In this document: one piece after another, positions 9,580-49,740 of the stretch | How positions within the stretch are numbered: position 1 is the stretch's first letter | Layout: each line of letters starts with the position of its first letter | DNA from: Lentisphaerae bacterium GWF2_38_69 | GTDB taxonomy: Bacteria; Verrucomicrobiota; Lentisphaeria; Victivallales; GWF2-38-69 | Assembly (NCBI GenBank): GCA_001803205.1 | Contig: MHBE01000031.1 | Span: forward strand, 15,238 to 79,237 | Direction: 5' to 3' | DNA length: 64,000 nucleotides | Position numbers and translations under genes: made by a program | Notes under the pieces: generated by a model | The model's database searches: none | Seen by the model: only the letters and a program-made list of their open reading frames with translations | What the model was told of the DNA's origin: nothing

Positions 9580-9585
9580 AAATTA

Positions 9586-10395: not shown

Positions 10396-10396
10396 A

Positions 10397-21144: not shown

Positions 21145-21165
21145 CTGATTTAAATTGAGGGGAAA

Positions 21166-21531
21166 ATGAAAAAAACTTTTAATGTCAAGGTCAATGATAA
21201 ATCATACTGCGTGGAAGTGGAAGAAACTTCCTGTGCATGTATTTCGCCGAGAGAGCTTCCTTCTGAGCTAGCAGCCAGAATAGCCCATATTTCAGCAAAA
21301 AAGGACACTTCCGGTTCTCTTTGCGTAAATGCTCCACTTCCTGGTTTGATTGTAGAAGTTTTAGTCAAGGAAGGGCAAAACGTAAAATCTGGAGATAAAT
21401 TGCTCGTCCTTGAAGCAATGAAGATGGAAAACTCTATCCTTGCTCCAATTACCGGCGTAATTGAAAAAATTCTTGTAAAAGAGGGCGAGTCTGTAAATGG
21501 CAAACATACAATGATTCAACTCAAACATTGA
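21166..21531 (+). CDS. Biotin carboxyl carrier protein (biotinyl domain)
   Basis: 121 aa with the biotinylation motif LEAMKMEN in a lipoyl/biotinyl fold. Confidence 0.85.
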   Translation: MKKTFNVKVNDKSYCVEVEETSCACISPRELPSELAARIAHISAKKDTSGSLCVNAPLPGLIVEVLVKEGQNVKSGDKLLVLEAMKMENSILAPITGVIEKILVKEGESVNGKHTMIQLKH

Positions 21532-21540
21532 TTTCTCTTA

Positions 21541-22053
21541 TTGATGTTTATTAAAAGATTTAAAAGAGAAATTAAACGCGCTTCTATAAAGCTCATAGGT
21601 TCGAAAGATTCTATTTACTCGTCTTCAATGGGGGTTGCCATCGGTTTGTTTTGTTCGGTGGCAGTCCCCTTTCTCCAGTTTGCTCTTGCCATCATAATTG
21701 CTTATTTCTTGAAGGCAAGCAAGACTCTAGCAGTGATTTTTACTTTTTTCTCAAATCCATATACGACTCCTTTTCTCTATGTCTCTGCATGTCTGCTTGG
21801 CGCTTCTATTTTGAGAGTAGATATTACAATTGTTGAAATAAAATCATCTTTCAAGGATATTTATTCCTCATTTAGTTTTGAAGCAATAAGTCATATCGGG
21901 TGGAAGCTTTTTATATCTTATATGGTAGGCGGACCGATCATTGGCGCTGCTTTAGGACTTGCAGGATATTTCTTGTCTGCTAAATTTATTATAGTTCATC
22001 AAAGGAACCGTATAGAGAAAAGAAAGAAGAGAGTATCTAAAAACCATATTTAA
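21541..22053 (+). CDS. DUF2062-like membrane protein
   Basis: 170 aa. Basic N-terminus, 3-4 TM helices and the FSNPYTTPF segment typical of DUF2062. Confidence 0.5.
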   Translation: MMFIKRFKREIKRASIKLIGSKDSIYSSSMGVAIGLFCSVAVPFLQFALAIIIAYFLKASKTLAVIFTFFSNPYTTPFLYVSACLLGASILRVDITIVEIKSSFKDIYSSFSFEAISHIGWKLFISYMVGGPIIGAALGLAGYFLSAKFIIVHQRNRIEKRKKRVSKNHI

Positions 22054-23475
22054 ATGGAGTGTGAAAACATGGCTGTTTTTATCAAGAATATCCAGACACT
22101 GGTTACTATGGACGAAAATTTTACAGTCCTATCTGGAGTAGATGTAAAAATAGAGGGTAACAAGATTGCTGAGATTGGGAAAAATCTGTCAATATCTGAA
22201 GCTGCAAAGATTATAGATGGAAGCAATAAGGTAGTCTATCCTGGTTTTATAAACACACACCATCATTTTTATCAGACGCTAACAAGAAATATTCCGGCCA
22301 TTCAGAGCGTTAAACTTTTCGACTGGCTGGTGCTCCTTTATGAAATATGGACTGAATTAAATGAAGAATTTGTGGAATTAAGCACTAAGATTGCAGTTGG
22401 AGAACTCCTTCTTTCAGGGTGCACTACTTCTACAGACCACTATTATGTTTTCCCCAAGGGAAAGCCCAATGAACTCCTTGATATAGAGATAGATATTGCA
22501 AGAAAAATGGGGATGAGGTTTTATCCTTGCAGAGGCAGCATGACCAGAGGTCGTTCAAATGGAGGGCTCCCGCCTGATACAGTTGTTCAGTCTCCTGAAG
22601 AGATAATGAAGGACTGTGACAGGATAATAAAAAAATATCACAGCACAGATCCTTTCGCAATGACCAGGATAATTCTGGCTCCATGCTCTCCTTTCTCTGT
22701 AACTACTGATATTCTCAAGGACACCTCAAAATATGCAAGAAATAAAGGCGTTATGATGCATACTCACCTTTGCGAGACAAAGGATGAAGAAGATTACTGC
22801 TTAAAAATGCATGGTAAACGCCCTCTGGAATACATGAATGGCTGCGGATGGTTGGGAAATGATGTTTTCTTTGCTCATGGAATTCATTTTAATGATGAAG
22901 AAATCAAAGTTCTTGCTAAAACTCAAACAGGTATAGCCCATTGCCCGGCTTCAAATATGCGATTAGGCTCTGGTATATGCAGAGTTCCTGATCTTCTTGA
23001 TGCAGGAGTCAAAGTCGGACTGGCCGTGGACGGGAGCGCAAGTAACGACGCAGGTAATTATGTCAGGGAAATCCAGCTTGCGTTGCTGATTAACAGAATA
23101 GGCTCATCTGAAGAACGCATGACCCCCCAGAAAGCTTTGTATATTGCAACAAATGGGGGAGCAAAAGTTTTCAATAATCAAAATATAGGTTCTATCAAGG
23201 TTGGTCAGGCTGCCGATTTGGCAATTTTCAATCTGGAAAGATTAGATTTTGCCGGAGCTATGTCAGATCCTATGTCGGCTATTGTATTTTGCGGGGCAGG
23301 CATGAGAACTGATTTTACTATTGTTAATGGCAAGGTGGTTGTTGAGAATGGCAGGCTCGTGGGAATTGATGAGAAAGAAATTTTCCATAGAGCAAATGCT
23401 TTTACAAAAAAGATACTTGAGAAGACTTCAGCCAGAACAAAAATCGATTACTACAAGTATAAATCCAACTTCTGA
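22054..23475 (+). CDS. Amidohydrolase-superfamily deaminase (8-oxoguanine deaminase / chlorohydrolase-like, COG0402)
   Basis: PGFINTHHHFYQT metal-binding HxH, GCTTSTDHYY, GGLPPD, APCSPFSV, HTHLCET, GIAHCPASNMRLGSG and AVDGSASND motifs. Confidence 0.7.
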   Translation: MECENMAVFIKNIQTLVTMDENFTVLSGVDVKIEGNKIAEIGKNLSISEAAKIIDGSNKVVYPGFINTHHHFYQTLTRNIPAIQSVKLFDWLVLLYEIWTELNEEFVELSTKIAVGELLLSGCTTSTDHYYVFPKGKPNELLDIEIDIARKMGMRFYPCRGSMTRGRSNGGLPPDTVVQSPEEIMKDCDRIIKKYHSTDPFAMTRIILAPCSPFSVTTDILKDTSKYARNKGVMMHTHLCETKDEEDYCLKMHGKRPLEYMNGCGWLGNDVFFAHGIHFNDEEIKVLAKTQTGIAHCPASNMRLGSGICRVPDLLDAGVKVGLAVDGSASNDAGNYVREIQLALLINRIGSSEERMTPQKALYIATNGGAKVFNNQNIGSIKVGQAADLAIFNLERLDFAGAMSDPMSAIVFCGAGMRTDFTIVNGKVVVENGRLVGIDEKEIFHRANAFTKKILEKTSARTKIDYYKYKSNF

Positions 23476-30546: not shown

Positions 30547-32433
30547 CTATTTAAATAATTCCATAATACCTATGCTAATCCAGGGAACATAAGTTATTAA
30601 TATAAGTACCAGAAAGAAAAGCAGCAGAAAAGGAAGAACATAAAGCGCAATACGCATTAGAGGTTTATTGAATCTAAAGGCAGAGAGAAAGAGATTCATT
30701 CCCACTGGTGGAGTAAGATATCCTATTTGTAAGTTGACAATAAAGATTATTCCGAGATGAACAGGATTTATCCCGAATAGAGCAGATATTGGAAGAATAA
30801 GGGGCACGACTATTATCAATGCAGAATATATATCCATCAGACATCCTGCTAGGAGCAGAGCTATATTCAATGCTATAAGGAATTCCCATTTTGACCATGA
30901 TTGCTGTATAACCCATTGTGCGGCTTTGGCCGGAACCTGTGCGTCAACCAGATAGTTAGTCAATCCCATTGCAACACCCAGCACTATAAGAACTCCACCC
31001 ACAAGAACTGAACATTTTACAAGAAGCGCAAAAAGTTTTTTTATTCCTAAGTCTCTATATATGAGTACTTCTACAACAAGGGAATAAAGAACGGTTAATG
31101 CGGCGGCTTCGACTATTGTGCAAAATCCGCCGAAAATCCCTACAAGTGCTACTACCGGAATGAGCAGTTCCCATTTTGCCAGCCAAATTGATTTGATTAA
31201 CGCATCGGTCTTGAATGGTGTTATCTCGCTATTTCCAAGCTTCTTTCTCCCTTTCCATAAGCACATCATGCAGACTGGAAGTACAAGTAAAATTCCCGGT
31301 AATATACCAGCCTTGAATAAATCCAGTATAGAGATTTTTGCAATAACAGCGTACAATATCACAACTAGACTTGGAGGAAAAAGCAATCCAATACTGCCTG
31401 TAGCAGTGAGCAATCCGATTGAAAATTTCTCATCTGCTCCACTACTTAGTAGGACAGGAAGCAGTAGTCCTCCAAGCGCTAATATGGTAATTCCTGATGC
31501 CCCAGTAAATGTAGTAAAAAAAGCACAAAGCATTGTAACGGCCACAGCGACTCCTCCAGGAAACCATCCGAAAAGTGACTGAAATACTCTGATAAATCGT
31601 TCGCTGGCATTGCTTTCTGACAAGATAAAACCAGCTAATGTAAAGAGAGGAATTGTAGGGAAGACTGGAGACACTACTATTCTGTACATCTCTACAGGGA
31701 TTGCGGATGTCGTTACTCCGTCAGACCAGAAAAGAAGGAGTGCTGCACCTCCGATGAAGACAAAAATAGGAGCTCCGAGCGCAGCAGAAACTATCAGTAT
31801 GATTATTCCAATCAAAGCAAAACCAGACGGAGCCTCAGGGTAGATGATTGAAAGGAGAATTACACAAGGCAAACTAAGCGCTATTATTATTTTAGACCAG
31901 ATGCTCTTATTAGGAAAAGTTGTTATAAAAAGCAAAGCCATCAATCCAAAGCCTAAAGGCATAATGCTTTCGGCTATCCAGATGGGTATAAGTCCTCCAA
32001 CTTTAAGGGTATTTCCTAATTCAAAAAGACCGAAAGGTTCAAGCCAGTTTTCAATAAAACCCGGTATCAAGTGCCTAAAACTTTCTGAAATCCCCGGAGA
32101 TTCTGCAGTGATTAACTCTATCCCAGCTCCGCAGAGAGACCAGCAGACTGCAGCAGATAGAAATGAAGTCCAGTGTTCAGCAAAAACGCGAAGAAATTTT
32201 GGTAAAAATGTAAAGTCTCCTGCTATTCTTAGATGCTTATTGTCTCTCGCTGCCAGAACTGCTCCTAAAAGCCCGACCCATAAGGTCAGATGTTGCAAAA
32301 AATCAGCTACTCCTATTGTAGAATAACCGAAAAATAACCTTCCTGCCATTTCAGAGCAGGGGAGAAATGCCATCAGGAGCAGAAGCAGCGCGGCTATTGA
32401 GTTCCCTGTCCAGTTGAATATCTTTGGCAGCAT
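30547..32433 (-). CDS. TRAP transporter, fused small/large permease (DctQ-DctM fusion)
   Basis: 628 aa, highly hydrophobic. DctQ-like N-terminus, then a DctM-like 12-TM body (FTGASGITILALGG..., LTPPVGMNLF). Confidence 0.85.
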   Translation of the reverse strand: MLPKIFNWTGNSIAALLLLLMAFLPCSEMAGRLFFGYSTIGVADFLQHLTLWVGLLGAVLAARDNKHLRIAGDFTFLPKFLRVFAEHWTSFLSAAVCWSLCGAGIELITAESPGISESFRHLIPGFIENWLEPFGLFELGNTLKVGGLIPIWIAESIMPLGFGLMALLFITTFPNKSIWSKIIIALSLPCVILLSIIYPEAPSGFALIGIIILIVSAALGAPIFVFIGGAALLLFWSDGVTTSAIPVEMYRIVVSPVFPTIPLFTLAGFILSESNASERFIRVFQSLFGWFPGGVAVAVTMLCAFFTTFTGASGITILALGGLLLPVLLSSGADEKFSIGLLTATGSIGLLFPPSLVVILYAVIAKISILDLFKAGILPGILLVLPVCMMCLWKGRKKLGNSEITPFKTDALIKSIWLAKWELLIPVVALVGIFGGFCTIVEAAALTVLYSLVVEVLIYRDLGIKKLFALLVKCSVLVGGVLIVLGVAMGLTNYLVDAQVPAKAAQWVIQQSWSKWEFLIALNIALLLAGCLMDIYSALIIVVPLILPISALFGINPVHLGIIFIVNLQIGYLTPPVGMNLFLSAFRFNKPLMRIALYVLPFLLLFFLVLILITYVPWISIGIMELFK

Positions 32434-32444
32434 CGAATCAGAGG

Positions 32445-33458
32445 TTAATTTTTATCTTTATTTAGCTTGCGATATTCTTTTAGAGCGGCATTTACCTTGT
32501 CGAAGGTTCCCTTTGTGAAGCGGCGCCCGACAAAGAGGGGGATTCCGAACTTATCAATACTTTCCTGCCATAGAGCTGTTTCTTCTGGAGTAAGAATATT
32601 CACTTTCAGATTATGTTTTTTCATGACAGCAATTGCTTCATTTTCAAGTTTAATATCGTCTCCCCATATCCTGATGCCTGTATTCTGAGCGCTTTTTAGA
32701 AGTTTCGGCTTTAATTCATCAGGAATCTGGTTCCAGGCTTTCTCTGTAATCATGATTACACCCGGAAGAGACTGCCAACGGAGAGCGCACATATTCGGAG
32801 CCTGGTTGTACCATTGAAAACCAAGCGCTGCCTGCGGGGGAGCGGCAAAGGCTGTTATAAGACCTGTTTGCAAACTTGGAAGGAGGTCTGTCACACTAAG
32901 AGGAATAGGATTGAACCCTGCGTCTTTGAGCATTTGGAAATAGACAGGTTCGGAACCCCAGTAAAACAGTTTTTGTTTTTTCATGTCATCTGGAGTGCGA
33001 ACTTTGTCTTTTGAGAAAAAATGAACCCATCCTGCATTTGTCCAACAGAGAACCTTGAAGCCTTTTTTCTGAATTTCTTCATTGAAGAAAGGAGATAGTT
33101 TTTCTAGAACATATTCAAGCTCGTCATCGGTTTTAATATTGTTAGGAAAAGTCAGGGCTGTAACATCAGAGTAAAAATAGGCCACGCTTGAGGTGGCAAT
33201 CGCCGCTGCCTGAATCTGCCCGATACGCATTTTCCTTATAAGGTCGGGATCGTCTCCTGCTACACCGCCCGCATAAATCTGTATGACAATCTTGCCATTG
33301 CTTATGTCCTTCCAGTCCTGAGCCATTTGCAGAAGCTCTTTATGCCATTGCGAACCATCAGGGGCGACCGTGGCTAGTTTAATAGTCTGGGAATAAGTTG
33401 ATAATGAAAAGAAAAAAACAGACGACAACAGCAATAATAGAAGTTTCCTATAGATCAT
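32445..33458 (-). CDS. TRAP transporter substrate-binding protein (DctP/TatP-like)
   Basis: 337 aa with a signal peptide and DctP-family pattern. ATGA overlap with the upstream TPR lipoprotein gene. Confidence 0.85.
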   Translation of the reverse strand: MIYRKLLLLLLSSVFFFSLSTYSQTIKLATVAPDGSQWHKELLQMAQDWKDISNGKIVIQIYAGGVAGDDPDLIRKMRIGQIQAAAIATSSVAYFYSDVTALTFPNNIKTDDELEYVLEKLSPFFNEEIQKKGFKVLCWTNAGWVHFFSKDKVRTPDDMKKQKLFYWGSEPVYFQMLKDAGFNPIPLSVTDLLPSLQTGLITAFAAPPQAALGFQWYNQAPNMCALRWQSLPGVIMITEKAWNQIPDELKPKLLKSAQNTGIRIWGDDIKLENEAIAVMKKHNLKVNILTPEETALWQESIDKFGIPLFVGRRFTKGTFDKVNAALKEYRKLNKDKN

Positions 33459-34393
33459 TCTTTTACCTCCTCAAAGTCTATAAAAAGTAGTTCTTTTTGA
33501 GTTTGGAGCCATGCGGCTCTCTCTTGAGCGATTGTATTTACAAGGCGCCATTTCATAACTTCATTAGGATTAACAGCAAGAGCTTTGTTCAGCATCTCGT
33601 CGAAAAGCTTTATGTCTTGTCTTTTTACTGCTACAGACTCTGCATAAACGACATATGGATATGCGCGGTTTCCGTGAGTGTATGCTACGACTTCTTCCAG
33701 GTACTTTTTTGAATCAGCCATGTTTTCCTTTGTCGCATTTGGTTTTCTTGCTCCATAGGCTATGAAGAATTCGAGTATCGCTCCGTCCTTATAGTATCTG
33801 TCAAGTTCCATAGCTCTCTGCATTATGGCGACTGCTACAGGAAGCTCAGCAATATTTTCCATATTATTTATATTAGATGATATTCCGCCTGTCCATCCGG
33901 CTGCAGCCCAGTATAGAGCCGGAACATCTTCGACTGTTGTTTGGGCTAGAGTTAATTCTTTGTCAATCCTTACATTTCTGCTGAAATCAGGGTATTTGGA
34001 TTCTAATGCTGACAAGGCGTAATCTCTGCCTCTCAAACTCAGGTTTTGCGCTCTGTGAGACAAATGTTTTGACTGGGTATAATTTGTATTTTTGGTTATT
34101 TGAGCTAGTTGAGCCAGGTTCCCCTGGGCATAAGAGACATAACCTGTAGCGAGGATGATTTTAAGTTTGTTGTTGCAGGGATCCTGAGAGAGCATTACTT
34201 CCATAGTTTTGAGAGCTACTGGCATTGAGTCCCATATAAGTTCAGGATCATTTTCAGAATTTATTACATACAATGTTTTCTCATTTGAAAAGCCATTTTC
34301 CATTTGAGAGATAAATGTCTTTTTGATAATTGAACTGCAGGAAGTTAGAATCAATACCGATATTAAACTCAAGAACACAGGATATTTTTTCAT
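33455..34393 (-). CDS. TatT-like TPR lipoprotein (T-component of TPR-protein-associated TRAP transporters)
   Basis: Lipobox LILTSCSS and an all-helical 312-aa protein. The C-terminal YYKDGAILEFFIAYGA...YAESVAVKRQD..FDEMLNKAL matches my recollection of the TatT family. Lies first in the operon with the P and QM genes. Confidence 0.6.
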   Translation of the reverse strand: MKKYPVFLSLISVLILTSCSSIIKKTFISQMENGFSNEKTLYVINSENDPELIWDSMPVALKTMEVMLSQDPCNNKLKIILATGYVSYAQGNLAQLAQITKNTNYTQSKHLSHRAQNLSLRGRDYALSALESKYPDFSRNVRIDKELTLAQTTVEDVPALYWAAAGWTGGISSNINNMENIAELPVAVAIMQRAMELDRYYKDGAILEFFIAYGARKPNATKENMADSKKYLEEVVAYTHGNRAYPYVVYAESVAVKRQDIKLFDEMLNKALAVNPNEVMKWRLVNTIAQERAAWLQTQKELLFIDFEEVKE

Positions 34394-39565: not shown

Positions 39566-39877
39566 ATGACAGACGATTGGATAGATATTCAGAAAAATAA
39601 ATCTCATATCGAAAGGGAGAAGAAAAAGGCTGCTGAAATGCGGAAAAGCAACTGGTGGCAGAATCTTCTTCAGAAGGGAATATGTCACTATTGCCGAAAG
39701 AAATTTACGCCCGAAGAGTTAACCATGGATCATGTAGTTCCTCTCTCAAGAGGAGGCAAAAGCTCCAGAGGTAATATTGTTCTATGCTGTAAGGAGTGTA
39801 ATAATAACAAAAAATACCTTACTCCTGTCGAACTTATATTAAAAGAGCTCGAGAAAAATTATAATAGGCAGGAATAA
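39566..39877 (+). CDS. Small stand-alone HNH endonuclease-domain protein
   Basis: 103 aa with CHYC...MDHVVPLSRGG...GNIVLCCKECNNNK (HNH with CxxC zinc knuckles). Confidence 0.8.
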   Translation: MTDDWIDIQKNKSHIEREKKKAAEMRKSNWWQNLLQKGICHYCRKKFTPEELTMDHVVPLSRGGKSSRGNIVLCCKECNNNKKYLTPVELILKELEKNYNRQE

Positions 39878-39916: not shown

Positions 39917-42715
39917 TCAATCTTCCAAATACATTATGTCCTGGATATAGAAAGAATCAGGATGAGTCTCGTCATACTTTACACGGGCAAGAATTTTTTG
40001 AGAGGATGTAACTTCATCTGCGTTAATATCAAATCTTCCTTTTTTTACATTAACTTCCTGATTGCTCTTGTAAATGCTGGCAGTACCCTCATCAGGACCT
40101 ATGTCCTTAAGCGTTTGGCCAACAGCTATTATCGTATATAAATCAGGAGTTTCAACTTTCGTCAGATTAATAAATTTTCCAATTAACTCTTCTTTTGAGG
40201 CATCGGTAGTTTGTCCTGACTGTGTGGTAAGTTCAGAAACCTCATTTACAATTTGAGCCCTTGTGACGAAAGGACTTCCTCCCGTGGTTCCGTTCTGATC
40301 GAGAACTTCTTGGGCTATGGTATTGGCAGTAGAGACAGAAATAGCTGAACCTCCGCTGGCAGGATCATTGCCTGTACTGCTTTTTATATTACTTCCAATT
40401 TTTATCTGATCAAATAGTGTTCTTAAGACTGAAACATTATCTGAATTCAAATTTATTTTCCCTAGAGTGGCAGAATTTGAGGTCATTTTTACCTGGTCAA
40501 GAATATTTGCATCGCCCAGGATGTATGTGCCTCCTCCCGCGCTAGGGCCAAAACCGTTTCCATCAGCTGCCTCATTGTATTTTTTCAGGTTTAGCGTCTG
40601 GAAGGCTTTTGCTCTGTGTATAAATCCCAGTTCCCACGGCGATTTCATAGGAGCATTGCGGATGAAGGCTGTGGAAATACCCGTAGGATCCGTAGCTGTT
40701 TCAAGATCGTAGGTAGTGCCATTAAAAATTGACCTGGCTAAAGTGTAGGAAGTGTTCACTGAACCTATTGTGGCGTTAGCTGCTGTCTGGCTTGAAGTCT
40801 GATTAAGGTTAGCAGTGGAAGTCCCAGGCGTGCTGATCCAATCTTCCTGTTTTAGATTCTGCCTCGGGTCTTTTACCTGATAGTCTAAGGTTATGTATGC
40901 TGTATTAGTAGTATTGCTAGTACCGTTAACAGTAAAGAATGGAGTTTCAGGAGTAACGAGCATCGTAGGCATTTCTGAATAGTCGTAAAGTGTATTGCCA
41001 TCAGTGCTCATCAGTTTTATCTTCAAACTTTTAACAGTTACAGCCATTTTTATTCTGAGAGTTTTGACATTATTTACATTAATATTTGTCCCTTTGGTCT
41101 TTGTATCATTCAGACCAACTTGAAGCGGCGTTGCAGGAGAGATAGAATAATAGGTTTTTGAGCTAATAGAAGGAGTGTCGAATGAGACGGTAGTAGTGTC
41201 TGTTCCGGAAGTTCCAAACATATAAGTTGAAGTTCCGTACCAGAATTGATATGAGAAATCAGGTTCTACATAAATTTTGTAGACCCTTGAGTTAATTCCG
41301 TCATAGAGATTGACAAGCTCTACAGTTAGAGTGGGTGTAACATCGAAGTCGTATGTATATGGACTTGTCGATGTCCTCTTAATGACTGCTTTAAATTGAA
41401 TCATTACTTCGTTTATATACGGAACTTTTTCCAGGCCAAGATAGCCGGGGACAGATGGTGAATCAGTAGTAGGAATATCGTCAATATCGCAGTAATCAAT
41501 AAGATTTGCTATGATCTGGGGTTTTGTAGAATTAGGATCGTTCCACTCTATCAACCATTGTAAATAGTTCTGAGAATTTTTTGCAGCATTACCTATGGCA
41601 TTAACAGCAACTCCATTTGGATCCTGGCTAGATAAGGTATCCCAGTCCGTTCTGGAAAGGTTAAACCTTTCTTGCATTTCGCCTTGTTCTTTTATCAAAT
41701 CTTTATTTTCATCGATCCAGTATTTTTCATCATCAGGAGTGGAATTAACATAAAAAACCTTCTTAAAGTATTCTCTTATTGAGTCATTGTCCTGAGTTAT
41801 TCCGAGTGTACTGAAAAGCTGTTCATAATCTTCCCAGTCCCCAGCGCTGCCAGTATCCACCAATCCAGCCTGACTGCAGGTATTTACGCTCATTTTTGTA
41901 GGGTATTCTGCAGCAGGGGGGAAAGAATCCGCATCGTATTCTAAGCTCATAAGGCATAATTCATTAATATCCCTTCCAGGTCTGCCTGAGACATATGAAC
42001 CATCCGATGCTACAGAGCTATTGCCCCCACCGTAATTATCTTCAGAAGGAGGATTTTTATTGTATTCGGATGCATTATACCCTGAATCTATGACTGCCCA
42101 GGGATCTATTTTTCCTTTATCAGGGAGAACCACATAGGCAATTCTGCCAAAAATTTGTGTATCCGTATAGGTCTGATGCTGAGGGCTTTTAATATAAACC
42201 CAGGACAGAGCGGAAGTATCGCTAATATCGTAAGCTGTGTTAGACGGATAATCTACTGGAATCTCAAGATAAGTGATGCCATTGATTACAGTTGTAAGCT
42301 GTGATGCAAGATCATCTCCAAGAATAGCTCTTTTCTCGGCATCGGTCAGGGATGCGTCATTAGCGATATCTGCATCATGGCTTACAATTTCATTCATATT
42401 CTCCTGTGGGTCAGTAGACTTGTATTTCATATTAGCCATTGCCCTGTTAAAGGCTGTTTGAGCTAGAGCCCTGGCTATATTTATATCCTGAAAGTTGACT
42501 GCAGATTTCCTTTCAATCATGGAAGTTGTGACAAACGCTATCCCAACCATCAGAAGAAGCGCTGAAATACCGATGGCAAGAATTGTTGCCATTCCAGAGT
42601 TGTGGTTAGGGGATAGGGGACTGGGATTGGGGGAATGGGATTGTGTTTTGCGATTCATGAAAAAGAAAAAGCGAATTGTAGATTTTAGATTGCTGATTTT
42701 AGATTTCAAATTCAT
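39917..42715 (-). CDS. Giant GspK/PilX-like minor pseudopilin (arm 1)
   Basis: Leader ending ...NHNSG, then MATILAIGISALLLMVGIAFVTTS (GspK-type hydrophobic N-terminus with no Glu+5). GspK-like IIANLIDYCDIDD...YLGLEKVPYINE and ELGFIHRAKAF blocks. Paralogue of 47584..49740. 932 aa. Confidence 0.65.
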   Translation of the reverse strand: MNLKSKISNLKSTIRFFFFMNRKTQSHSPNPSPLSPNHNSGMATILAIGISALLLMVGIAFVTTSMIERKSAVNFQDINIARALAQTAFNRAMANMKYKSTDPQENMNEIVSHDADIANDASLTDAEKRAILGDDLASQLTTVINGITYLEIPVDYPSNTAYDISDTSALSWVYIKSPQHQTYTDTQIFGRIAYVVLPDKGKIDPWAVIDSGYNASEYNKNPPSEDNYGGGNSSVASDGSYVSGRPGRDINELCLMSLEYDADSFPPAAEYPTKMSVNTCSQAGLVDTGSAGDWEDYEQLFSTLGITQDNDSIREYFKKVFYVNSTPDDEKYWIDENKDLIKEQGEMQERFNLSRTDWDTLSSQDPNGVAVNAIGNAAKNSQNYLQWLIEWNDPNSTKPQIIANLIDYCDIDDIPTTDSPSVPGYLGLEKVPYINEVMIQFKAVIKRTSTSPYTYDFDVTPTLTVELVNLYDGINSRVYKIYVEPDFSYQFWYGTSTYMFGTSGTDTTTVSFDTPSISSKTYYSISPATPLQVGLNDTKTKGTNINVNNVKTLRIKMAVTVKSLKIKLMSTDGNTLYDYSEMPTMLVTPETPFFTVNGTSNTTNTAYITLDYQVKDPRQNLKQEDWISTPGTSTANLNQTSSQTAANATIGSVNTSYTLARSIFNGTTYDLETATDPTGISTAFIRNAPMKSPWELGFIHRAKAFQTLNLKKYNEAADGNGFGPSAGGGTYILGDANILDQVKMTSNSATLGKINLNSDNVSVLRTLFDQIKIGSNIKSSTGNDPASGGSAISVSTANTIAQEVLDQNGTTGGSPFVTRAQIVNEVSELTTQSGQTTDASKEELIGKFINLTKVETPDLYTIIAVGQTLKDIGPDEGTASIYKSNQEVNVKKGRFDINADEVTSSQKILARVKYDETHPDSFYIQDIMYLED

Positions 42716-42740
42716 AAAACAGTTAATAGTTGTCAGTTGC
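42671..42740 (-). repeat. 70-nt heptamer-periodic element spanning the arm-1 K-gene start codon
   Basis: Minus strand reads GCAACTG ACAACTA TTAACTG TTTTATG AATTTGA AATCTAA AATCAGC AATCTAA AATCTAC AATTCGC. 58/70 positions are identical to 47559..47628 by hand alignment. Confidence 0.8.
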
Positions 42741-42859
42741 TAGGTGATAGAATTATAATATGAAAAACTCTTTTTAAAACAAGGAACTACACAAAACAAC
42801 AATACTTTAACATAAAACCCAACACTCAAAATTTAACATTTGCCTTGCTCTCATTCTTC

Positions 42860-43723
42860 CTACTGCCCTCTGTCTCCGAGCAATACTGTCCTTGTAAAAG
42901 TAAGTTGCTTCGCTTCACGAAAATCCCTGGCTATTTCAGGCTCACCGGTATATTCAGGAGCGTGATATACGGTTGAACCGCATAGAGAAATCCATTTGTC
43001 CCATGAAGATTTATCCAATAGAGTCAGGTTAATAGTTACAGTTGTAGGGAATTGCGAAGCAGAGCAGGCGTTATTAGCTTTGGAGGTGGTCTGATCCGGC
43101 GGCAATACGCTGTTTGCGTCTGAATCGGTATCGCAAACAAAAGATACATCCAGCACATTCGGGATTAAATTCCGGTAATCCTGGGAAGAAGTCGAATTGG
43201 CGGTTAATGAAGCAGTAGGAACAGCCTCTGTCGTGTACCCTACTGTCAAGTTGTTCTGCCAGTTCCATCTTGTGTCAGTTTCGTCTTCATCTGTTATATT
43301 TCCAGTAATGCTTCTTCTTAGCCAGCCTTCATGCTCATCATTGTGATTAGCCGCATAATATAATTGGTACTTCAGTTCATATTTATTGGAAGTGCAATTG
43401 TTATTAGGCGGAATAGGAGAATAGGTGACAAACGCAAGAAGCTCATTGCTGAATTCATTCCAGTTAGCTCCCGGGGACATTTTTGCATGATGCCAGAAAG
43501 GGGCACTGGAATCTTCAGTCTTATATATTGCAGACTCCAAATCCCGTGTCATCAAATCTATGGCAATTCTTGCGTTTTCAAAAACCTCCTGCCTGGCATT
43601 TGTGATCGCCCAGGTATTCTGGTAGGATGAAAATAAAGTAAACGATACCGTTATGAGCAGTGACAGAATTGCCATGGACATAACAAGTTCAGTAAGTGTA
43701 AATAATGAAATTCTGCGAAGCAT
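42860..43723 (-). CDS. GspJ/PilW-like minor pseudopilin (arm 1)
   Basis: Class III signal-peptide core LFTLTELVMSMAILSLL, then QEVFENARIAIDLMTRDLESA, a GspJ-type helix. Paralogue of 46646..47491 (shared KYQLYYAA, SSQDY..LIP, FR....TF.R.V..G.RGQ). Confidence 0.7.
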   Translation of the reverse strand: MLRRISLFTLTELVMSMAILSLLITVSFTLFSSYQNTWAITNARQEVFENARIAIDLMTRDLESAIYKTEDSSAPFWHHAKMSPGANWNEFSNELLAFVTYSPIPPNNNCTSNKYELKYQLYYAANHNDEHEGWLRRSITGNITDEDETDTRWNWQNNLTVGYTTEAVPTASLTANSTSSQDYRNLIPNVLDVSFVCDTDSDANSVLPPDQTTSKANNACSASQFPTTVTINLTLLDKSSWDKWISLCGSTVYHAPEYTGEPEIARDFREAKQLTFTRTVLLGDRGQ

Positions 43724-43772
43724 TATAAAATTTTAAATATAGCACTCTGGATATCTCCAGAATGGTATTAAT

Positions 43773-45296
43773 TTATTTACTTATTTCTGACATATTATAG
43801 TATTCATTGTAAAATCTTAACTTTTGCCTCTTGCTGTAGTCCATCTGAGAGAGAGGCCAGCTGAGTTCGGCATTGACGCCTATTCCAGTTGAAATATTAC
43901 TGCTGCTGTCTGGATTTGGGGTAGGAGTTACTATCGGATCTGTTGTTCCATCATCTATAGAACCAATTGAAGGCAGTATCTGAATCTGCCATTGACCCAT
44001 TCCAGAATTATTTTTCCAGATTTTAACACTCAGGGCATTTGCGGTCTTTGAATTTATTTTTATATTTTTGCCATCAATTATTATATCTTGATTACCAACA
44101 TTTAATGTGGCATTGTCTCCATTCTTGGTTTTCATCTTCAGAGTATTGGCAGAAAATGTTTTGGAGTTTGGTGCTATATATTGAGCTTCATCTGGGTTAT
44201 TTCCTTTACTGATATTTTTCATCATATTTCTGTCCAGAATGACGCCCGTATCTGAACTTAATTCAAAAGCATAATCATTGTTAGTAGGTGAGATTCCAAT
44301 TCCCGTTACTGAAGTTTTTATTGAATCTGTTGGAACAGGATCAATATTGGTCAATATTACCAAATCCTGGTAGTCTTTGACAATACCATCAACATCAAAA
44401 AGATATATTATCTGGTCATTGGCGATGGCAATATTCTCTCCGTCATCATCCAGATATGGCTGAACTAAAGTCGCATTGGATTTCTGTCCATAATAGGGAG
44501 CATCAGTAGGTAGTGGAGACCCATTTTTTAAAGTATGAACCTTGCTTGTGTTTGTAGATAGCGATGAATAAGAAGTCCCTCCAAGGGTACCATAAGCTTC
44601 GCTGACAAAAGTTGTTCCAGCTGGAAGATTAGAGAGGTCAAATTCTCCTGAAGTACTTTCTACCGGAACATTTTGACCAAAAGGATATATTGTGTATTCA
44701 TTTTTGCCAGGTTCTTTAATTTTAACTCTAAAATATACATTATCTGGCCATTCAGAACCTATTGCTTTGAATTTGACATTTGCGTTAGATGTATTTGTAA
44801 CAGTTCCGCTTGTTATATTAAAAGCAGAAGGCTCTTCCGGAGGTGCTTGAGCAGTTCCAGGTTTCTTCAGTATATTTGAATTCATGCCAGGTGGAATGCT
44901 CTGCCAGACAACAAGCTGCGCTGAATAGTCTTCAGTGCTGGAGGTTGATTTGGATATTATATAGACACCGGGAACATTGGTGTCATAAATATCTGTAGAC
45001 ACCTTGTCTTGTTTTACTGCTTCTGTAATAACTGGCTGAGCTGAATTGTTCTGAGAAAAAAGATCACTGTATTCCGGGAGATCTGCCAAAGCACTGAAGT
45101 CCTTCTCTGAGAGATTCGCAAAGTAAGCCTTGGCATCTCCAGTAAAAATTCCTGCATAGTTCTCTCCAATAGCGTCTTTCTTTTCTTTAATTCCTGTTGG
45201 CATTAAAGTTACTACAGCAGTAGCCCCTATAGCAAGTATACCAACAGCAATTGCTACTTCCACCAGGGTAAAGAGTTTTATATTCAATGTCTTCAT
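43773..45296 (-). CDS. Oversized GspI/PilV-like minor pseudopilin (arm 1)
   Basis: N-terminus MKTLNIKLFTLVEVAIAVGILAIGATAVVTLMPTGIKEKKDA. The C-terminal GIGVNAELSWPL...RFYNEYY is shared with 45584..46645. 507 aa. SD gagg upstream. Confidence 0.55.
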   Translation of the reverse strand: MKTLNIKLFTLVEVAIAVGILAIGATAVVTLMPTGIKEKKDAIGENYAGIFTGDAKAYFANLSEKDFSALADLPEYSDLFSQNNSAQPVITEAVKQDKVSTDIYDTNVPGVYIISKSTSSTEDYSAQLVVWQSIPPGMNSNILKKPGTAQAPPEEPSAFNITSGTVTNTSNANVKFKAIGSEWPDNVYFRVKIKEPGKNEYTIYPFGQNVPVESTSGEFDLSNLPAGTTFVSEAYGTLGGTSYSSLSTNTSKVHTLKNGSPLPTDAPYYGQKSNATLVQPYLDDDGENIAIANDQIIYLFDVDGIVKDYQDLVILTNIDPVPTDSIKTSVTGIGISPTNNDYAFELSSDTGVILDRNMMKNISKGNNPDEAQYIAPNSKTFSANTLKMKTKNGDNATLNVGNQDIIIDGKNIKINSKTANALSVKIWKNNSGMGQWQIQILPSIGSIDDGTTDPIVTPTPNPDSSSNISTGIGVNAELSWPLSQMDYSKRQKLRFYNEYYNMSEISK

Positions 45297-45327
45297 GGCA
45301 GTGCCTCATTTTATCTTTATGTATATA

Positions 45328-45356
45328 ATTATAGCAAAATTTCACTAAAAAGACAA
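45328..45356 (-). promoter_or_regulatory. Putative sigma70-type promoter for arm 1 (minus strand)
   Basis: Minus strand reads TTGTCT - 17 nt - TGcTATAAT (extended -10), ending about 30 nt upstream of the arm-1 start codon. Confidence 0.35.
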
Positions 45357-45407
45357 TACCTTCAGGATATTATAAATAAAGCAGATATAGAATATATGTC
45401 GTGTTTA

Positions 45408-45425
45408 TTTCATATTAATATGGAA
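45408..45425. promoter_or_regulatory. Near-perfect 18-bp palindrome (core CATATTAATATG) between the two divergent promoters; candidate operator
   Basis: tttCATATTAATATGgaa. The 12-bp core is a perfect palindrome and two of the three flanking pairs also match. Confidence 0.25.
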
Positions 45426-45534
45426 CATGGCATAAATGCGAAATTGCGCTCATTAAGAGTTTTAATGTCCTTATTATATTTGACTTATTCTAAACCTTCC
45501 TGCGTAAATTATGTTTATTGTAAAATATCTAGTA

Positions 45535-45563
45535 TTGGAGAAACAAGGCGTTCGGGCTATAAT
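45535..45563 (+). promoter_or_regulatory. Putative sigma70-type promoter for arm 2 (plus strand)
   Basis: TTGGAG - 17 nt - TATAAT, ending 20 nt upstream of ATG 45584. Confidence 0.3.
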
Positions 45564-45583
45564 TTTCAAAAAATAGGCATGAT

Positions 45584-46645
45584 ATGAGATTGTTAAAATA
45601 TTTTTCACTTATAGAAATGACATTGGGCATATCGATACTTGTCGTAGGTGCCACATCTGCATTGTCATTAATACCTGTGGGAATTAAAGACTCTAATGAA
45701 TCCACCGGTAAAAATTATGCATCTGTCTCCAGCCAGAGTATATACTCATACATATTAGGGCAGGCAGAAAGGTCTGCAGCCAGTTTTTCTGACCTCAAAA
45801 ATAGTATTCCTACCGAGTATCCGACTAATTCGCTTGCTTATGATGATTCATTTACCTCATTAGGCAATAATATTTACCAATCAGGCAATATTTATGCAGT
45901 TAAATATTATACAGGCAACCGTTTGGACTTTAATGCCGAAGTCAAAATATGGCAAACGCCTGTTTATTACACCTATAGGAATCTCAATGGCACCAATGTC
46001 CCTTCTTTTTCAGGCGTTACTGATGCGCAAATTAGCGATCCAGAACCGGATCCGACCCCAGCCCCTGATCTTGTAATTACTAATACAAGAGATGCTACAT
46101 TTAATTTCCTGATTTATTTAAAAACTCTTGATGGAACACCGTCATGGTCACAATTAAGCTTGACAACTTCGGACACTTCCACTTACTTTATTCCTGCAAA
46201 TGCTCAAACTTATGACAATGTGACAAGTGTCTCTTATAAATTTGACCCGGGATCAGGATTTACCTATGGAGGCTCTACATATGGTACTATGGTTTTGAAT
46301 AGCACAGAACCAATTGAAATGGATACAGGTAATAACGGTTTTACTTATTTTCCAAATTCTAGTGATTGGGGTATTTTTCTGATTTATTTGGGATTTATGC
46401 CTCCAGATTGGAGCGGCGCTTCGCTTTCTCTATATGTAAATAATAACGGACCTGGACTAGGAACAGGCTATAATCCCCCTGCGCAAGTGGTTTATAGCGG
46501 CAATGGAAACATATACGATAAATCGTTATATTCTGAAAGCCCAGGAACAGGTATAGGAATCAATGTAGAAGTCAGCTGGCCTATTGAAAAGGTTTATGAG
46601 CAAAGACTCAAATACAAATATTATTTTGAAGTTTATAAACCGTAA
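45584..46645 (+). CDS. Oversized GspI/PilV-like minor pseudopilin (arm 2)
   Basis: MRLLKYFSLIEMTLGISILVVGATSALSLIPVGIKDSNES and C-terminal GIGINVEVSWPI...KYYFEVY. Paralogue of 43773..45296. 353 aa. Confidence 0.55.
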   Translation: MRLLKYFSLIEMTLGISILVVGATSALSLIPVGIKDSNESTGKNYASVSSQSIYSYILGQAERSAASFSDLKNSIPTEYPTNSLAYDDSFTSLGNNIYQSGNIYAVKYYTGNRLDFNAEVKIWQTPVYYTYRNLNGTNVPSFSGVTDAQISDPEPDPTPAPDLVITNTRDATFNFLIYLKTLDGTPSWSQLSLTTSDTSTYFIPANAQTYDNVTSVSYKFDPGSGFTYGGSTYGTMVLNSTEPIEMDTGNNGFTYFPNSSDWGIFLIYLGFMPPDWSGASLSLYVNNNGPGLGTGYNPPAQVVYSGNGNIYDKSLYSESPGTGIGINVEVSWPIEKVYEQRLKYKYYFEVYKP

Positions 46646-47491
46646 ATGGATATTCGCAGCCGCTTGAAAATTAGATACTTTTCTTTAATTGAACTTATTG
46701 CTGCCATGTCGATCTTCATTTTGTTTCTAACTGTTGCTTTTCAATTTGTCTCCACTACTCAAAATGCGATTAGCATCTCAGGAAAAAGAAGGGGGCTTAC
46801 TGAAGACGCCAGAATTGCGCTGGATATAATTGCAAGGGATCTCCAGAACTCATATTACGGTAACGAATCTGGTAATTATGCTCAATTTTGGCATTGGGGA
46901 CAAGATGAAAATGGAACTCCATTGAGGCCATCTGCCTGGGGCGAATACAGAAATGAGCTAATAGCTTTTATTTCCAATACGCCTATTCCTCCTGAAGACT
47001 GTACTTCAAAGCTTTGTGAAGTAAAATATCAGCTTTATTATGCCGCTTCTCATGACTCTAATGAAGGTTGGCTTATCAGAAGCGTCACTGGTGATATTGA
47101 TGGAGCGAAATGGAATTTTAAAGATAATCTAGAGGCTGGCTATAGTTCTTCAGCTTCAGCTTTTAGTGCTGACAACGCTTCATCCCAGGACTACCAGAAA
47201 TTAATTCCTCATGTCGTTGATTTAAGGTTTGATTGTTATGATATTGACGGAGACACAATTCGTGCGGATGATAATGTAACCACATCAGCCAGAGATATTC
47301 CTCCCGGTTCGTTCCCTTATTTAGTAAATATCACAATTACTCTTATGGATGATGAATCCTGGATGAAATGGAAAGAACTTTCAGGAACAGCTCCGTATCC
47401 TGATGATTCGGGGGCAGCCAAAACATTCAGAGAGAATAATCAGCAGACTTTCGTAAGAGCTGTTCACATAGGCAACAGGGGACAAAATTGA
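46646..47491 (+). CDS. GspJ/PilW-like minor pseudopilin (arm 2)
   Basis: MDIRSRLKIRYFSLIELIAAMSIFILFL...EDARIALDIIARDLQNS. Starts immediately after the stop codon of the I-like gene. Confidence 0.7.
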   Translation: MDIRSRLKIRYFSLIELIAAMSIFILFLTVAFQFVSTTQNAISISGKRRGLTEDARIALDIIARDLQNSYYGNESGNYAQFWHWGQDENGTPLRPSAWGEYRNELIAFISNTPIPPEDCTSKLCEVKYQLYYAASHDSNEGWLIRSVTGDIDGAKWNFKDNLEAGYSSSASAFSADNASSQDYQKLIPHVVDLRFDCYDIDGDTIRADDNVTTSARDIPPGSFPYLVNITITLMDDESWMKWKELSGTAPYPDDSGAAKTFRENNQQTFVRAVHIGNRGQN

Positions 47492-47558
47492 GAATGAAGG
47501 AAAGTGTTCAGTTTTGAGTGTTGAGTTTTGAGTTAAAGCATTATAATTATATCAGTTA

Positions 47559-47628
47559 ACAACTGATAACTATCAACTGTTCTATGAATTTAAAATTTAA
47601 AATCTGCAATCTGAAATCTGTAATCCGT
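47559..47628 (+). repeat. 70-nt heptamer-periodic element spanning the arm-2 K-gene start codon
   Basis: ACAACTG ATAACTA TCAACTG TTCTATG AATTTAA AATTTAA AATCTGC AATCTGA AATCTGT AATCCGT. Confidence 0.8.
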
Positions 47629-49740
47629 CTTTCCCTATCCCCGAACCGCGAGCCACGAACCACGAGTTACGAATCAGGTATTTCCACAATAATAGCCATC
47701 GGAATTACCACTATGCTTCTGGGTATTGCCGTGGCCTTTGTCTCGACTTCAATTATAGAAAAAAAAGCCACTTCTAACAATATGGACATAAACACTGCTA
47801 GATTCATGGCTTATGCCGCGTATCAACGGGCAAAAGAGTCAATCATCAATTCGAACGCACTTTATCAGGATATTTATCCTGTTGATACAAGCAGGAATTT
47901 AGATGACGAAGAAAGAGCTGACCTTATAGCAAATTTGGAAACAGTCATTACCAGTAGTGAAACTACCGATACATACATTGTAACAGACACAGGTATTACA
48001 TGGTCTTATCAGCAATCTACTGATAATGAGCCAAATAGATGGCTGAGCCGCCTCTCGTATGCCGCAATGGCAGATCCTGATACTCCCGAAGCTAAAGAAG
48101 CATTCTGGATCCCGTCTTCAGCCTCTGATACTACAATAGATGATTCAGAACTCTACCACAGATTCGACCTTATGAATTATACATGGGATGAGGCTACTGT
48201 AACTTCATTTTTGGGGGGAGATACTATCAATTTTGATGACAATCCTGGTGCTACAACATCAACTGTTATTCCCTGGTTGAAAAACTGGGAAGATTTCGGG
48301 GATATGGGAAGCGCAACTGCAGCCAGAAACCAGATTATTGCTAATTTAATTGATTATTGTGACTCAGATAGTGCTGCTACGACTGACTATGATGGCGTAA
48401 CCTCGCCAACATATGTAGGCCTTGAAAAATGTCCTTATATAAATGAAATAGTGTTAAAATGCTATGTTTATGTGTCCTATGTGGGATCTTCAAGCGGTGG
48501 GCCAGGATTCAGATTGCGTCTTTATGTGACTCCTTCTGTCGAACAGGTAAATTTGTATGATGAATCAGCTTCTCAAAAAGTCGAAGTTGATGTGACTGCT
48601 ATGTATACAATAACTTTCTCTTGGTATAGTGGTTCCTGGCCCACTTGCGAAGAAAGTCTTGCAGCGACCTCGCCTGATACTACTGTTACAACAAATTCTA
48701 AAAGCTATAGCGCATCAACTATGGAAGAATTTTATGGAGCGACAGTTAGTTCAGTATCTGACAATATTTTTTTTCAGGTATCAAGCTTTAGAATTACAAA
48801 TATCACAGTTAAGCTATTTGACTCCAGTAATAATTTGCAGGATTATTCCATAGTTTTAGATTCGCCAGTGACATGTGATGAAGCAAATGTTTCTGGAGGT
48901 TTTGGACATTCTGCTACATCACCTGTGTTTTTTCTCAGATATGAAGCAAATGACTCTCGACAGAATTTGCTCTCAAACGACTGGACATATTCTACTACAG
49001 ATTCTTCTTTAGGTTCTGACAACTCAAATTTTAATCCAAATCCCGGAGGAGACACAGATGCAGAACCAACCGCAACTCATCCCTGGGAAATTTCCACTGC
49101 TTATATTGCCGATACCAATATGCAGTCGGCAGCAGAACTTGGATATATTCACAGGGCTAAAGCATTTCAGACTATCAATCTTAAGACATTCAATGATACT
49201 GAAGGGTTGCTAGATACCGCAGGGGGAAATGCCTATGCTGACGGAGATGCCAATATCCTGGATCAGGTTAAACTAGACACTGATATTTCTCGAAACGAAT
49301 ATATCAATCTTAACTCTAGGGACAGATATCTTTTTTCCTCATTAACTGAACTCTATGGAGAAGGAATATCGACAGAAACGGCTGTTAGCGCTTTAAATAT
49401 TGCCAGACCCTTGGCTCTTTATCAGTCAAGAGCATCCATTCTTGCAAATTCAGATTTGGCAGATGTGCCTTTGGAACTTTCATCAATTCTTTATCCTGTC
49501 CAGGAAACTGACACGGAAAGGGAACAAGTTATAGGTGATGTGATAACAGGTTGTGAAGCGATGAATCAATCCTATTTCATAATTGGATTAGGGGAATCTT
49601 TCAGAGATGTAGTTAATTATAAGCAGTACGATGCAGATATTGATATCGTTTCTTCCTCTCAGAAAGTCCTCACCAAAATGCAGAAAACAATAGGATCTGA
49701 TTCTAGCAAGGTAGTAGAATTCCAGTATCTATCAGATTAA
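47584..49740 (+). CDS. Giant GspK/PilX-like minor pseudopilin (arm 2)
   Basis: Leader MNLKFKICNLKSVIR...SYESG, then ISTIIAIGITTMLLGIAVAFVSTS. IIANLIDYCDSDS...YVGLEKCPYINE and ELGYIHRAKAF blocks. 718 aa. Confidence 0.65.
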   Translation: MNLKFKICNLKSVIRLSLSPNREPRTTSYESGISTIIAIGITTMLLGIAVAFVSTSIIEKKATSNNMDINTARFMAYAAYQRAKESIINSNALYQDIYPVDTSRNLDDEERADLIANLETVITSSETTDTYIVTDTGITWSYQQSTDNEPNRWLSRLSYAAMADPDTPEAKEAFWIPSSASDTTIDDSELYHRFDLMNYTWDEATVTSFLGGDTINFDDNPGATTSTVIPWLKNWEDFGDMGSATAARNQIIANLIDYCDSDSAATTDYDGVTSPTYVGLEKCPYINEIVLKCYVYVSYVGSSSGGPGFRLRLYVTPSVEQVNLYDESASQKVEVDVTAMYTITFSWYSGSWPTCEESLAATSPDTTVTTNSKSYSASTMEEFYGATVSSVSDNIFFQVSSFRITNITVKLFDSSNNLQDYSIVLDSPVTCDEANVSGGFGHSATSPVFFLRYEANDSRQNLLSNDWTYSTTDSSLGSDNSNFNPNPGGDTDAEPTATHPWEISTAYIADTNMQSAAELGYIHRAKAFQTINLKTFNDTEGLLDTAGGNAYADGDANILDQVKLDTDISRNEYINLNSRDRYLFSSLTELYGEGISTETAVSALNIARPLALYQSRASILANSDLADVPLELSSILYPVQETDTEREQVIGDVITGCEAMNQSYFIIGLGESFRDVVNYKQYDADIDIVSSSQKVLTKMQKTIGSDSSKVVEFQYLSD

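Follow-up and report, generated by a model that had tools for sequence, protein, structure and literature searches.

What do two back-to-back triads of pilin-like genes do in a stretch of DNA that carries no fibre-assembly machinery? This question is raised by positions 39,917 to 49,740 of a 64,000-nucleotide stretch of contig MHBE01000031.1 from Lentisphaerae bacterium GWF2_38_69 (the window, at its full length of 64 kb), where a sequence-only reading had noticed a mirrored pair of gene sets resembling gspI, gspJ and gspK, the minor pseudopilin genes of type II secretion systems (T2SS). Our analysis supports the identification of the six encoded proteins as GspI/J/K-type minor pseudopilins, with J recognised by its fold, K by profile–profile alignment, and I, J and K by profile matches. 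The triad genes are GspI/J/K-like in working but stand outside the curated families, since they score below the family cut-offs. We consider it probable that the locus holds two old paralogous tip sets of the T2SS type, whose fibres would be assembled by a machine encoded elsewhere, in a genome with at least four interchangeable sets of this kind. The six open reading frames (ORFs) and the 287-bp spacer lie exactly where the sequence-only reading had placed them, on the strands that it gave; they are listed here with the non-coding features of the locus (m, minus arm; p, plus arm).

39917..42715, minus strand: Km, K-like gene of the minus arm (932 aa as the longest ORF; 913 aa from 42658 according to Prodigal)
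42680..42846, minus strand: conserved non-coding element between J and K of the minus arm (blocks 42801-42846 and 42680-42759)
42860..43723, minus strand: Jm, J-like gene of the minus arm (287 aa, GspJ-type minor pseudopilin)
43773..45296, minus strand: Im, I-like gene of the minus arm (507 aa, GspI/PilV-type N-terminus)
45297..45583, no strand: divergent spacer between the two I genes (287 bp, AT-rich)
45584..46645, plus strand: Ip, I-like gene of the plus arm (ORF of 353 aa)
46646..47491, plus strand: Jp, J-like gene of the plus arm (281 aa, 41.6% identical to Jm)
47497..47619, plus strand: conserved non-coding element between J and K of the plus arm (blocks 47497-47542 and 47540-47619)
47584..49740, plus strand: Kp, K-like gene of the plus arm (718 aa, a short K variant)
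43702 and 45272, minus strand, and 45602 and 46679, plus strand: signal sites at the N-termini of the I and J proteins, without Gly at −1

Two complete and diverged I-J-K sets are present, as had been proposed. BLASTP comparison of the arms showed that Jm and Jp are 41.6% identical over their full length (E = 8e-69), in agreement with the approximately 40% estimated earlier by eye, and that Km and Kp are 30-33% identical (E = 4e-51 and 1e-21). Im and Ip could be aligned only through their N-termini (25% identity, E = 8e-14) and their last 31 residues (48%, E = 4e-06). All the motifs quoted in the sequence-only reading were recovered in the translations, namely FTLVE, FTLTE, FSLIE and FSLIE at the N-termini, ARIAIDLMTRDLESA and ARIALDIIARDLQNS in the J proteins, and IIANLIDYCD...GLEK.PYINE and ELG.IHRAKAF in the K proteins. 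For comparison with relatives, a scan of one genome per species yielded 69 loci (ids within L002-L076), whose ORFs were assigned by means of profiles for I, J, K and H and by comparison with the Gsp proteins of E. coli.

The J proteins were characterised by profile searches and structure prediction. Jm matched TIGR02599 (Verru_Chthon cassette protein C) at 1.1e-14 and gspJ at 4.5e-04, in its N-terminal part only, and Jp matched the same two families at 2.5e-07 and 0.022, respectively. For the cassette C family, J scored 54 bits against a cut-off of 256.5. An AlphaFold2 (AF2) model of Jm, built from nine homologues, reached a predicted local distance difference test (pLDDT) score of 70. When this model was compared with the PDB using Foldseek, the top nine matches were all chains of XcpW, the GspJ homologue of P. 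aeruginosa (9a1f_S, 6utu, 5vtm_W, 5bw0 and 3nje), with E values from 1.3e-05 to 6.5e-03, probabilities of 0.99-1.0 and target-normalised template modelling (TM) scores of 0.54-0.63; besides XcpW, no PDB match was obtained below E 0.3. Alignment of the minus-arm J with E. coli GspJ by hhalign gave a probability of 84%, and the J profile matched only pilin N-termini among the PDB chain sequences. According to this model, which is of moderate confidence, J has the GspJ/XcpW fold.

The N-terminus of the K proteins has a Gly and a hydrophobic stretch without Glu at +5, in both Km and Kp, and Km matches the K-family profile at E 4e-277. Among 37 members of the K family, T2SS_GspK (NF037980) was matched by 19 (best 2.1e-06) and Verru_Chthon_A (TIGR02600) by 18 (best 1.9e-10); these matches fall on the N-terminal helix and, for Verru_Chthon_A, also on the C-terminal sheet, and the GspK score is at most ~22 bits versus a cut-off of 130 (NF037980). 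Among the Pfam families, PilX_N was matched by 7/33 members and T2SSK_1st by 2/33, and Km itself showed a weak PilX_N match at residues 52-89. Profile–profile alignment of K with a 34-sequence GspK profile using hhalign gave a probability of 92% (E = 7e-07) over the N-terminal 78 columns, corresponding to the helix, while the alignment with the single E. coli GspK sequence was weak (16%). With its β-sandwich removed, K could be aligned colinearly with GspK positions 137-255 (probability 85%, E = 6e-06), a result that is supportive and not blind, since the splice was chosen after the motifs had been inspected. In this spliced alignment, IIANLIDYCDxD...Y.GLEK.PY is paired with DWIDxD...GAED.Y...PPY of GspK, NAPMxSPWELGxIHRG with ANxxLxxxSELRxvxG, and GKiNiNsxxxxvL with LxINVNTAxxxxL.

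The AF2 model of Kp (pLDDT 79.8, predicted TM score 0.75) consists, in order, of a 60-residue N-terminal helix, a first sheet, the IIANLIDYCD helix, a β-sandwich (residues 285-470), a helical domain (516-654) and a C-terminal sheet; as modelled, Kp follows the GspK plan with one extra domain. This β-sandwich insert is the least conserved part of K, with a mean majority frequency of 0.34 compared with 0.59-0.69 in the GspK-like segments. Km has a large extra N-terminal sheet region together with its β-sandwich insert, and Kp is devoid of approximately 115 residues of the N-terminal sheet region found in most family members. In two K homologues, P0027 (L005, 10001-12841) and P0024, a CBM_2 domain was detected, and in the L005 protein it occupies, by eye, the position of the β-sandwich insert, right after the PYINE motif. 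The K profile found no match among the PDB chain sequences. An exhaustive profile search retrieved 5,636 representative K-related proteins at E ≤ 0.001, 800 of them at E ≤ 1e-30.

The I protein Im combines a GspI/PilV-type N-terminus with a conserved C-terminal strand motif, separated by an insert of approximately 300 aa. Im matched TIGR02598 (cassette protein B) at 3.5e-05, with 24 bits against a cut-off of 51.4, and PilV at 0.047; Ip matched the I-family profile at E 6e-112 and TIGR02598 at 0.065. Among 31 I-family members from related loci, 28 matched Verru_Chthon B, 13 PilV (best 9e-07), three XpsI and two GspI, in all cases via the N-terminal segment. The hhalign comparison of I with the single E. 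coli GspI sequence was weak (probability 9.5%); against the PDB chain sequences the I profile matched only PilA (E = 0.016), and Im alone gave no match. In the clade that lacks a gene resembling gspH (H-like), the I proteins reach up to ~540 aa, compared with ~200 aa elsewhere. The idea that these oversized proteins contain an H-like domain was rejected: the H profile matches neither the window I proteins nor any other large I protein, and its only match among I proteins is a marginal, partial one to a small I protein (L072, E = 0.0017). By eye, the large I proteins have a common module, ~LNG..P......YL.DDG...L..NQ..YLF.......D.QDLVVL, located in the middle of Im (window 44400-44700, residues ~255-320) and at the C-terminus of the I protein of L005 (8463-9839); this module has no Pfam or PDB sequence match.

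With respect to the surroundings of the triads, a six-frame motif scan of the 64-kb window found prepilin-like N-terminal motifs in its I and J ORFs only. Pfam scans of 36 of the 42 other ORFs of at least 150 aa detected no secretin, GspE/F-type ATPase, platform protein, prepilin peptidase, GspG or GspH; of the six ORFs that were not scanned, three have precomputed Pfam matches unrelated to such machinery or none, and three are shadow ORFs nested in larger genes. Both scans agree with the earlier observation that assembly machinery, a major pseudopilin and GspH are missing from the window, and throughout its 64 kb none of gspC-F, L, M, O, G and H is in cis with the triads. The 36 scanned ORFs are metabolic or housekeeping genes by their Pfam matches (among them pyruvate:ferredoxin oxidoreductase, TRAP transporter, recX, lepA, lepB and lnt). 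No PilY1/PilC-type domain was found inside or adjoining either arm.

The 69 related loci come almost entirely from Lentisphaerota (Victivallales, Victivallis and Lentisphaera), with a few metagenome-assembled genomes (MAGs) labelled Verrucomicrobia or Kiritimatiellota, and in them I, J and K nearly always occur as a unit, mostly in this order on one strand. The upstream context was counted for those I genes, 54 in number, that have 1.5 kb or more of sequence before them. An H-like gene of ~220 aa, whose best match is Verru_Chthon cassette protein D followed by GspH, lies directly before I in 32 of these 54, and in 12 of the 32 it is itself preceded by two genes with gspG as best match. An H-like gene is missing from the other 22, among which are the two arms of the window and their closest clade. 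The usual form in relatives is, consequently, G-G'-H-I-J-K or H-I-J-K, an order colinear with both gspGHIJK and the D-B-C-A order of the cassette. The sequence-only reading had known of no described system with the organisation seen in the window; the comparison contradicts this, the triad being the usual terminal I-J-K part of a pseudopilin gene block found widely in Lentisphaerota and a remote equivalent of the Verru_Chthon cassette (D-B-C-A). Secretin-like or GspE-like genes were found within 10 kb of a triad in three distinct loci only, which indicates that separation from the machine is normal in the phylum. Two loci carry secretin-family genes 2-9 kb from the triad, L004 at 21133-22550 (also with TPR repeats) and L074 at 9465-11147, and these may mark the machine that is served.

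The mirrored layout had been taken as a special unit, a view that did not survive the comparison: in other genomes the orthologues of each arm form single triads, and pairs can be tandem as well as divergent. The J and K proteins correspond to the database records DD381_10950 and DD381_10930, hypothetical proteins of 'MAG: Lentisphaeria bacterium', and the J protein was found on seven contigs, the longest of 90.8 kb, with neighbouring genes common to six of these places. The same MAG contains a second mirrored pair, at L002 4333-13365, in which a spacer of ~300 bp separates K-J-I (minus strand) from I-J-K (plus strand); L002 was tied to this MAG through protein DD381_02275, which has the locus-tag prefix DD381. 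Other arrangements include partly divergent clusters (L016 and L019), tandem I-J-K I-J-K (L020 and L067), the permuted order I-K-J (L004 and L011), a convergent J (L005) and lone K genes (L006, L010 and L012). In neighbour-joining trees of J and K, the four triads of the MAG fall on deep, separate branches, the window minus arm grouping with L003 and L032, the window Jp with the J of L004, and the L002 minus arm with L008 and L037. The counterparts of these triads in the closed genome OZ245791.1 are single and lie at 1.10, 1.68 and 1.93 Mb. Given the deep branches and the single orthologues in other genomes, the arms are old paralogues that happen to be neighbours in this lineage; they do not stem from a recent inverted duplication, nor do they form a conserved bipartite unit.

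We also analysed the non-coding DNA of the locus for features that could control the two arms. The 287-bp spacer presumably holds the promoters of both; a promoter and terminator scan of it gave consensus matches at the level of shuffled sequences. No inverted repeats of more than 16 nt flank the spacer (45297-45583), which shows no similarity to the spacer of the second mirrored pair of the same MAG, and Pfam scans detected no recombinase in the window. As none of these three results supports it, an invertible switch for alternate expression was rejected. Between J and K, in contrast to the flanking proteins (30-44% identical), the intergenic DNA is the better conserved between the arms: a first block of 46 nt right after the J stop codon is 83% identical, and a second block of 80 nt, which reaches into the annotated start of each K ORF, is 86% identical. 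The element is made of 7-nt periodic repeats. Its presence upstream of both K genes argues, if the element is functional, for common and not exclusive control of them. The earlier suggestion that the arms might be alternately expressed thus finds no support, either at the spacer or in front of the K genes. Since K homologues elsewhere start approximately 10 residues before the conserved Gly, J and K overlap without a spacer in L002 and L003, and the Prodigal start of Km is Met20, the first 20-30 codons of Km and Kp, which are inside the conserved element, may be leader RNA rather than protein. As a more widely conserved feature the element proved a dead end: it occurs in none of the 69 related loci, and when metagenomes were scanned with its 20-nt core, the more than 119 matches were unrelated, none of them beside I, J or K genes and only short partial ones extending past the core.

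The class III signal cores reported at the start of the I and J proteins are present, in that Phe(+1), Glu(+5) and the hydrophobic helix were found in both I and both J, but the signal is atypical, because Gly(−1) is absent, and the N_methyl and TIGR02532 scores of the window proteins are below the cut-off. In the 69 loci, Gly precedes the conserved Phe(+1) in only 3/35 G-like, 4/35 H-like, 1/59 I and 4/65 J proteins, while the Gly and hydrophobic stretch are kept in 63/72 K proteins. Canonical prepilin peptidases (PilD/GspO) need Gly, or rarely Ala or Ser, at −1. Judging from these sequences, prepilin processing in Lentisphaerota must either differ from the canonical process or not occur at the Phe(+1) site.

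The triads were compared with three named systems. With GspI-GspJ-GspK (XcpV-W-X; PDB 5vtm, 6utu and 9a1f) they have in common three protein classes in the same gene order and, for J, a predicted XcpW-type fold; K has the GspK-like N-terminus and alpha-domain motifs of the DWIDxD, SELRxxxG and INVNTA types, and relatives show the G-(G')-H-I-J-K arrangement of T2SS gsp operons. In contrast to GspI/J/K, all the window proteins are far below the family cut-offs, and I and J are devoid of Gly(−1). K measures 718-932 aa versus ~330 for GspK, with a variable β-sandwich inserted in the alpha-domain, I measures 353-507 aa versus ~125 for GspI, and, unlike in T2SS, several paralogous triad sets are present per genome. 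The Verru_Chthon cassette (TIGR02596, TIGR02598, TIGR02599 and TIGR02600) provides the best or joint-best matches of the H-like (D), I (B), J (C) and K (A) proteins, its D-B-C-A order is seen in relatives, and both are cassettes of the PVC group; its families are named for being multi-copy. However, the triad scores amount to 5-20% of the curated cut-offs, the matches are limited to the N-terminal helix and, in K, the C-terminal sheet, and a D/H-like gene is in neither arm and nowhere in the window. A literature search returned no paper on the 'Verru_Chthon cassette' and nothing specific on pseudopilins of Lentisphaerae.

The third system is that of Myxococcus xanthus, in which three sets of minor pilins and PilY1 serve one machine with one major pilin, and in which the authors proposed that the sets give tips with different properties (PMC7541494). 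Its clusters 1-3 resemble the present case in that several complete tip or priming sets occur per genome, apart from the machine genes (PMC7541494). They differ in belonging to a type IVa pilus, with four minor pilins and PilY1 per set, as opposed to three GspI/J/K-type genes and no PilY1 here (PMC7541494); any variable module would in our case sit within K and I themselves. The use of multiple tip sets for one machine, therefore, has a precedent in M. xanthus and is not new, nor is the I-J-K triad and its role as such. What is new is that giant GspK-type proteins into which a variable domain is inserted are recognised as a large family, so far unannotated, together with its partner I and J families, and also the multi-copy, machine-detached organisation of the triads in Lentisphaerota and the non-Gly(−1) signal.

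The mechanism that we propose for the two tip sets follows that of the T2SS. In the inner membrane, GspI, GspJ and GspK (XcpV-W-X) assemble into a heterotrimeric tip complex whose apex is K. By analogy, each I-J-K set would make up such a complex, which would start the assembly of a short fibre on a platform and an ATPase encoded elsewhere in the genome, and would stay at the fibre apex with K on top. The β-sandwich of K and the inserts of I would be the exposed parts. The tip sets of the genome, at least four and interchangeable (the window pair plus the second mirrored pair), would use one machine, and as they differ in their exposed modules they would give rise to fibres or pseudopili whose tips differ in binding or substrate handling. 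Of this picture, the gene identities, the paralogy of the arms, the lack of machinery in cis and the distribution and context in relatives come from the analysis itself, and the trimer, the remote machine, the exposed position of the inserts and the functional difference between sets are inferred.

Several observations weigh against this explanation. None of the six triad proteins reaches a curated Pfam or NCBIfam cut-off: Jm and Jp score 20.1 and 14.6 bits against the 64.85 bits required for GspJ (TIGR01711) and have no T2SSJ Pfam match, and Km and Kp have no match to NCBIfam or T2SSK at E ≤ 1. The evidence for the I family is confined to the N-terminal segment, the spliced K alignment was not blind, and a whole-chain Foldseek search of the PDB with the Kp model returned only weak β-sandwich matches (E ≥ 3.8e-03) and no GspK. 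None of GspD, E, F, G, H, L, M and O accompanies I-J-K in the 64-kb window, as they would in a canonical gsp operon. Finally, residue −1 of the window I and J proteins is Leu, Leu, Tyr and Tyr, never Gly, and without it their processing and incorporation in a fibre are not assured. The assignment to GspI/J/K first made from motifs has thus gained the fold of J, the profile–profile alignment of K and sub-threshold matches for all three classes, but it stays below every curated cut-off.

We weighed three other explanations against the same evidence. It is distinctly unlikely, in our estimation, that the triads encode PilV/PilW/PilX-like minor pilins that prime a long type IV pilus, for adhesion or motility, on the cell surface and not a T2SS pseudopilus. 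Such a role would account for the PilV matches of 13 I-family members and the PilX_N matches of seven K-family members; large exposed inserts and an occasional CBM_2 domain would suit an adhesive tip better than a periplasmic piston, and the M. xanthus precedent is itself a type IV pilus (PMC7541494). However, K has GspK-specific alpha-domain motifs and T2SS_GspK matches, the J model matches GspJ-type structures only, the G-like genes of related operons match gspG best within a G-H-I-J-K order that is the order of gsp operons, and there is no adjoining PilY1-like gene.

The pseudopilin-like N-termini might also be membrane anchors or export signals only, the large I and K proteins then being cell-envelope proteins and not fibre subunits. 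Very many proteins of Lentisphaerota and other PVC bacteria have such N-termini, Gly(−1) is missing not only from I and J but from most G/H/I/J-like proteins of the phylum, and the oversized subunits, like the absence of GspG, GspH and machinery in cis, agree with this possibility. Nevertheless, I, J and K strictly occur together and in order, frequently linked to H- and G-like genes, as is expected of a structural tip complex, J has the predicted GspJ fold, and the GspK motifs of K extend beyond its N-terminus, so that we regard an anchoring role as very improbable. An origin of the mirrored pair in misassembly, or in a recent inverted duplication of no functional meaning, is hardly credible at all. 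The 86% identity of the J-K element between the arms could suggest a recent exchange, but the arm proteins are only 25-44% identical, each arm groups with orthologues of other genomes, and the MAG contains another mirrored pair that differs from this one. The sequence-only reading had named an assembly artefact as an outcome that would overturn it; this is excluded, since the arms are too diverged for a misassembled repeat and the same neighbourhood recurs at six places.

The comparison shows several diverged tip sets lying apart from the machine in PVC-group bacteria, which offers a testable route by which T2SS-type fibres could come to vary in specificity. A broader proposal is that Lentisphaerota have one T2SS-derived fibre with exchangeable tips, a fast-evolving binding module on K and I (a β-sandwich, sometimes a CBM), and a non-canonical prepilin-processing rule; taken as a whole we find it rather doubtful. 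If it holds, a cell with four or more triads could display tips specific for different ligands or substrates, and the absence of Gly(−1) throughout the phylum from G-, H-, I- and J-like proteins, while K keeps it, would amount to a processing rule unlike the canonical one; in any case, the absence of this residue poses a concrete question on prepilin peptidase specificity in the phylum. The K family, so far 'hypothetical', with 5,636 representatives and none above a Pfam or NCBIfam threshold, gains an annotation as giant GspK-type tip subunits, its partner families can be annotated as GspI- and GspJ-type, and the uncharacterised Verru_Chthon cassette families become linked to T2SS minor pseudopilins.

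With regard to the remainder of the window, neither tRNA genes nor Rfam families were found in it. A stand-alone HNH endonuclease gene of 103 aa (39566-39877, plus strand) adjoins the 3' end of the minus-arm K, and no tie to the triads was seen. At 30547-34393, on the minus strand, lies a TRAP transporter operon that comprises a TatT-type T-component (PF16811), DctP and a fused DctQM.

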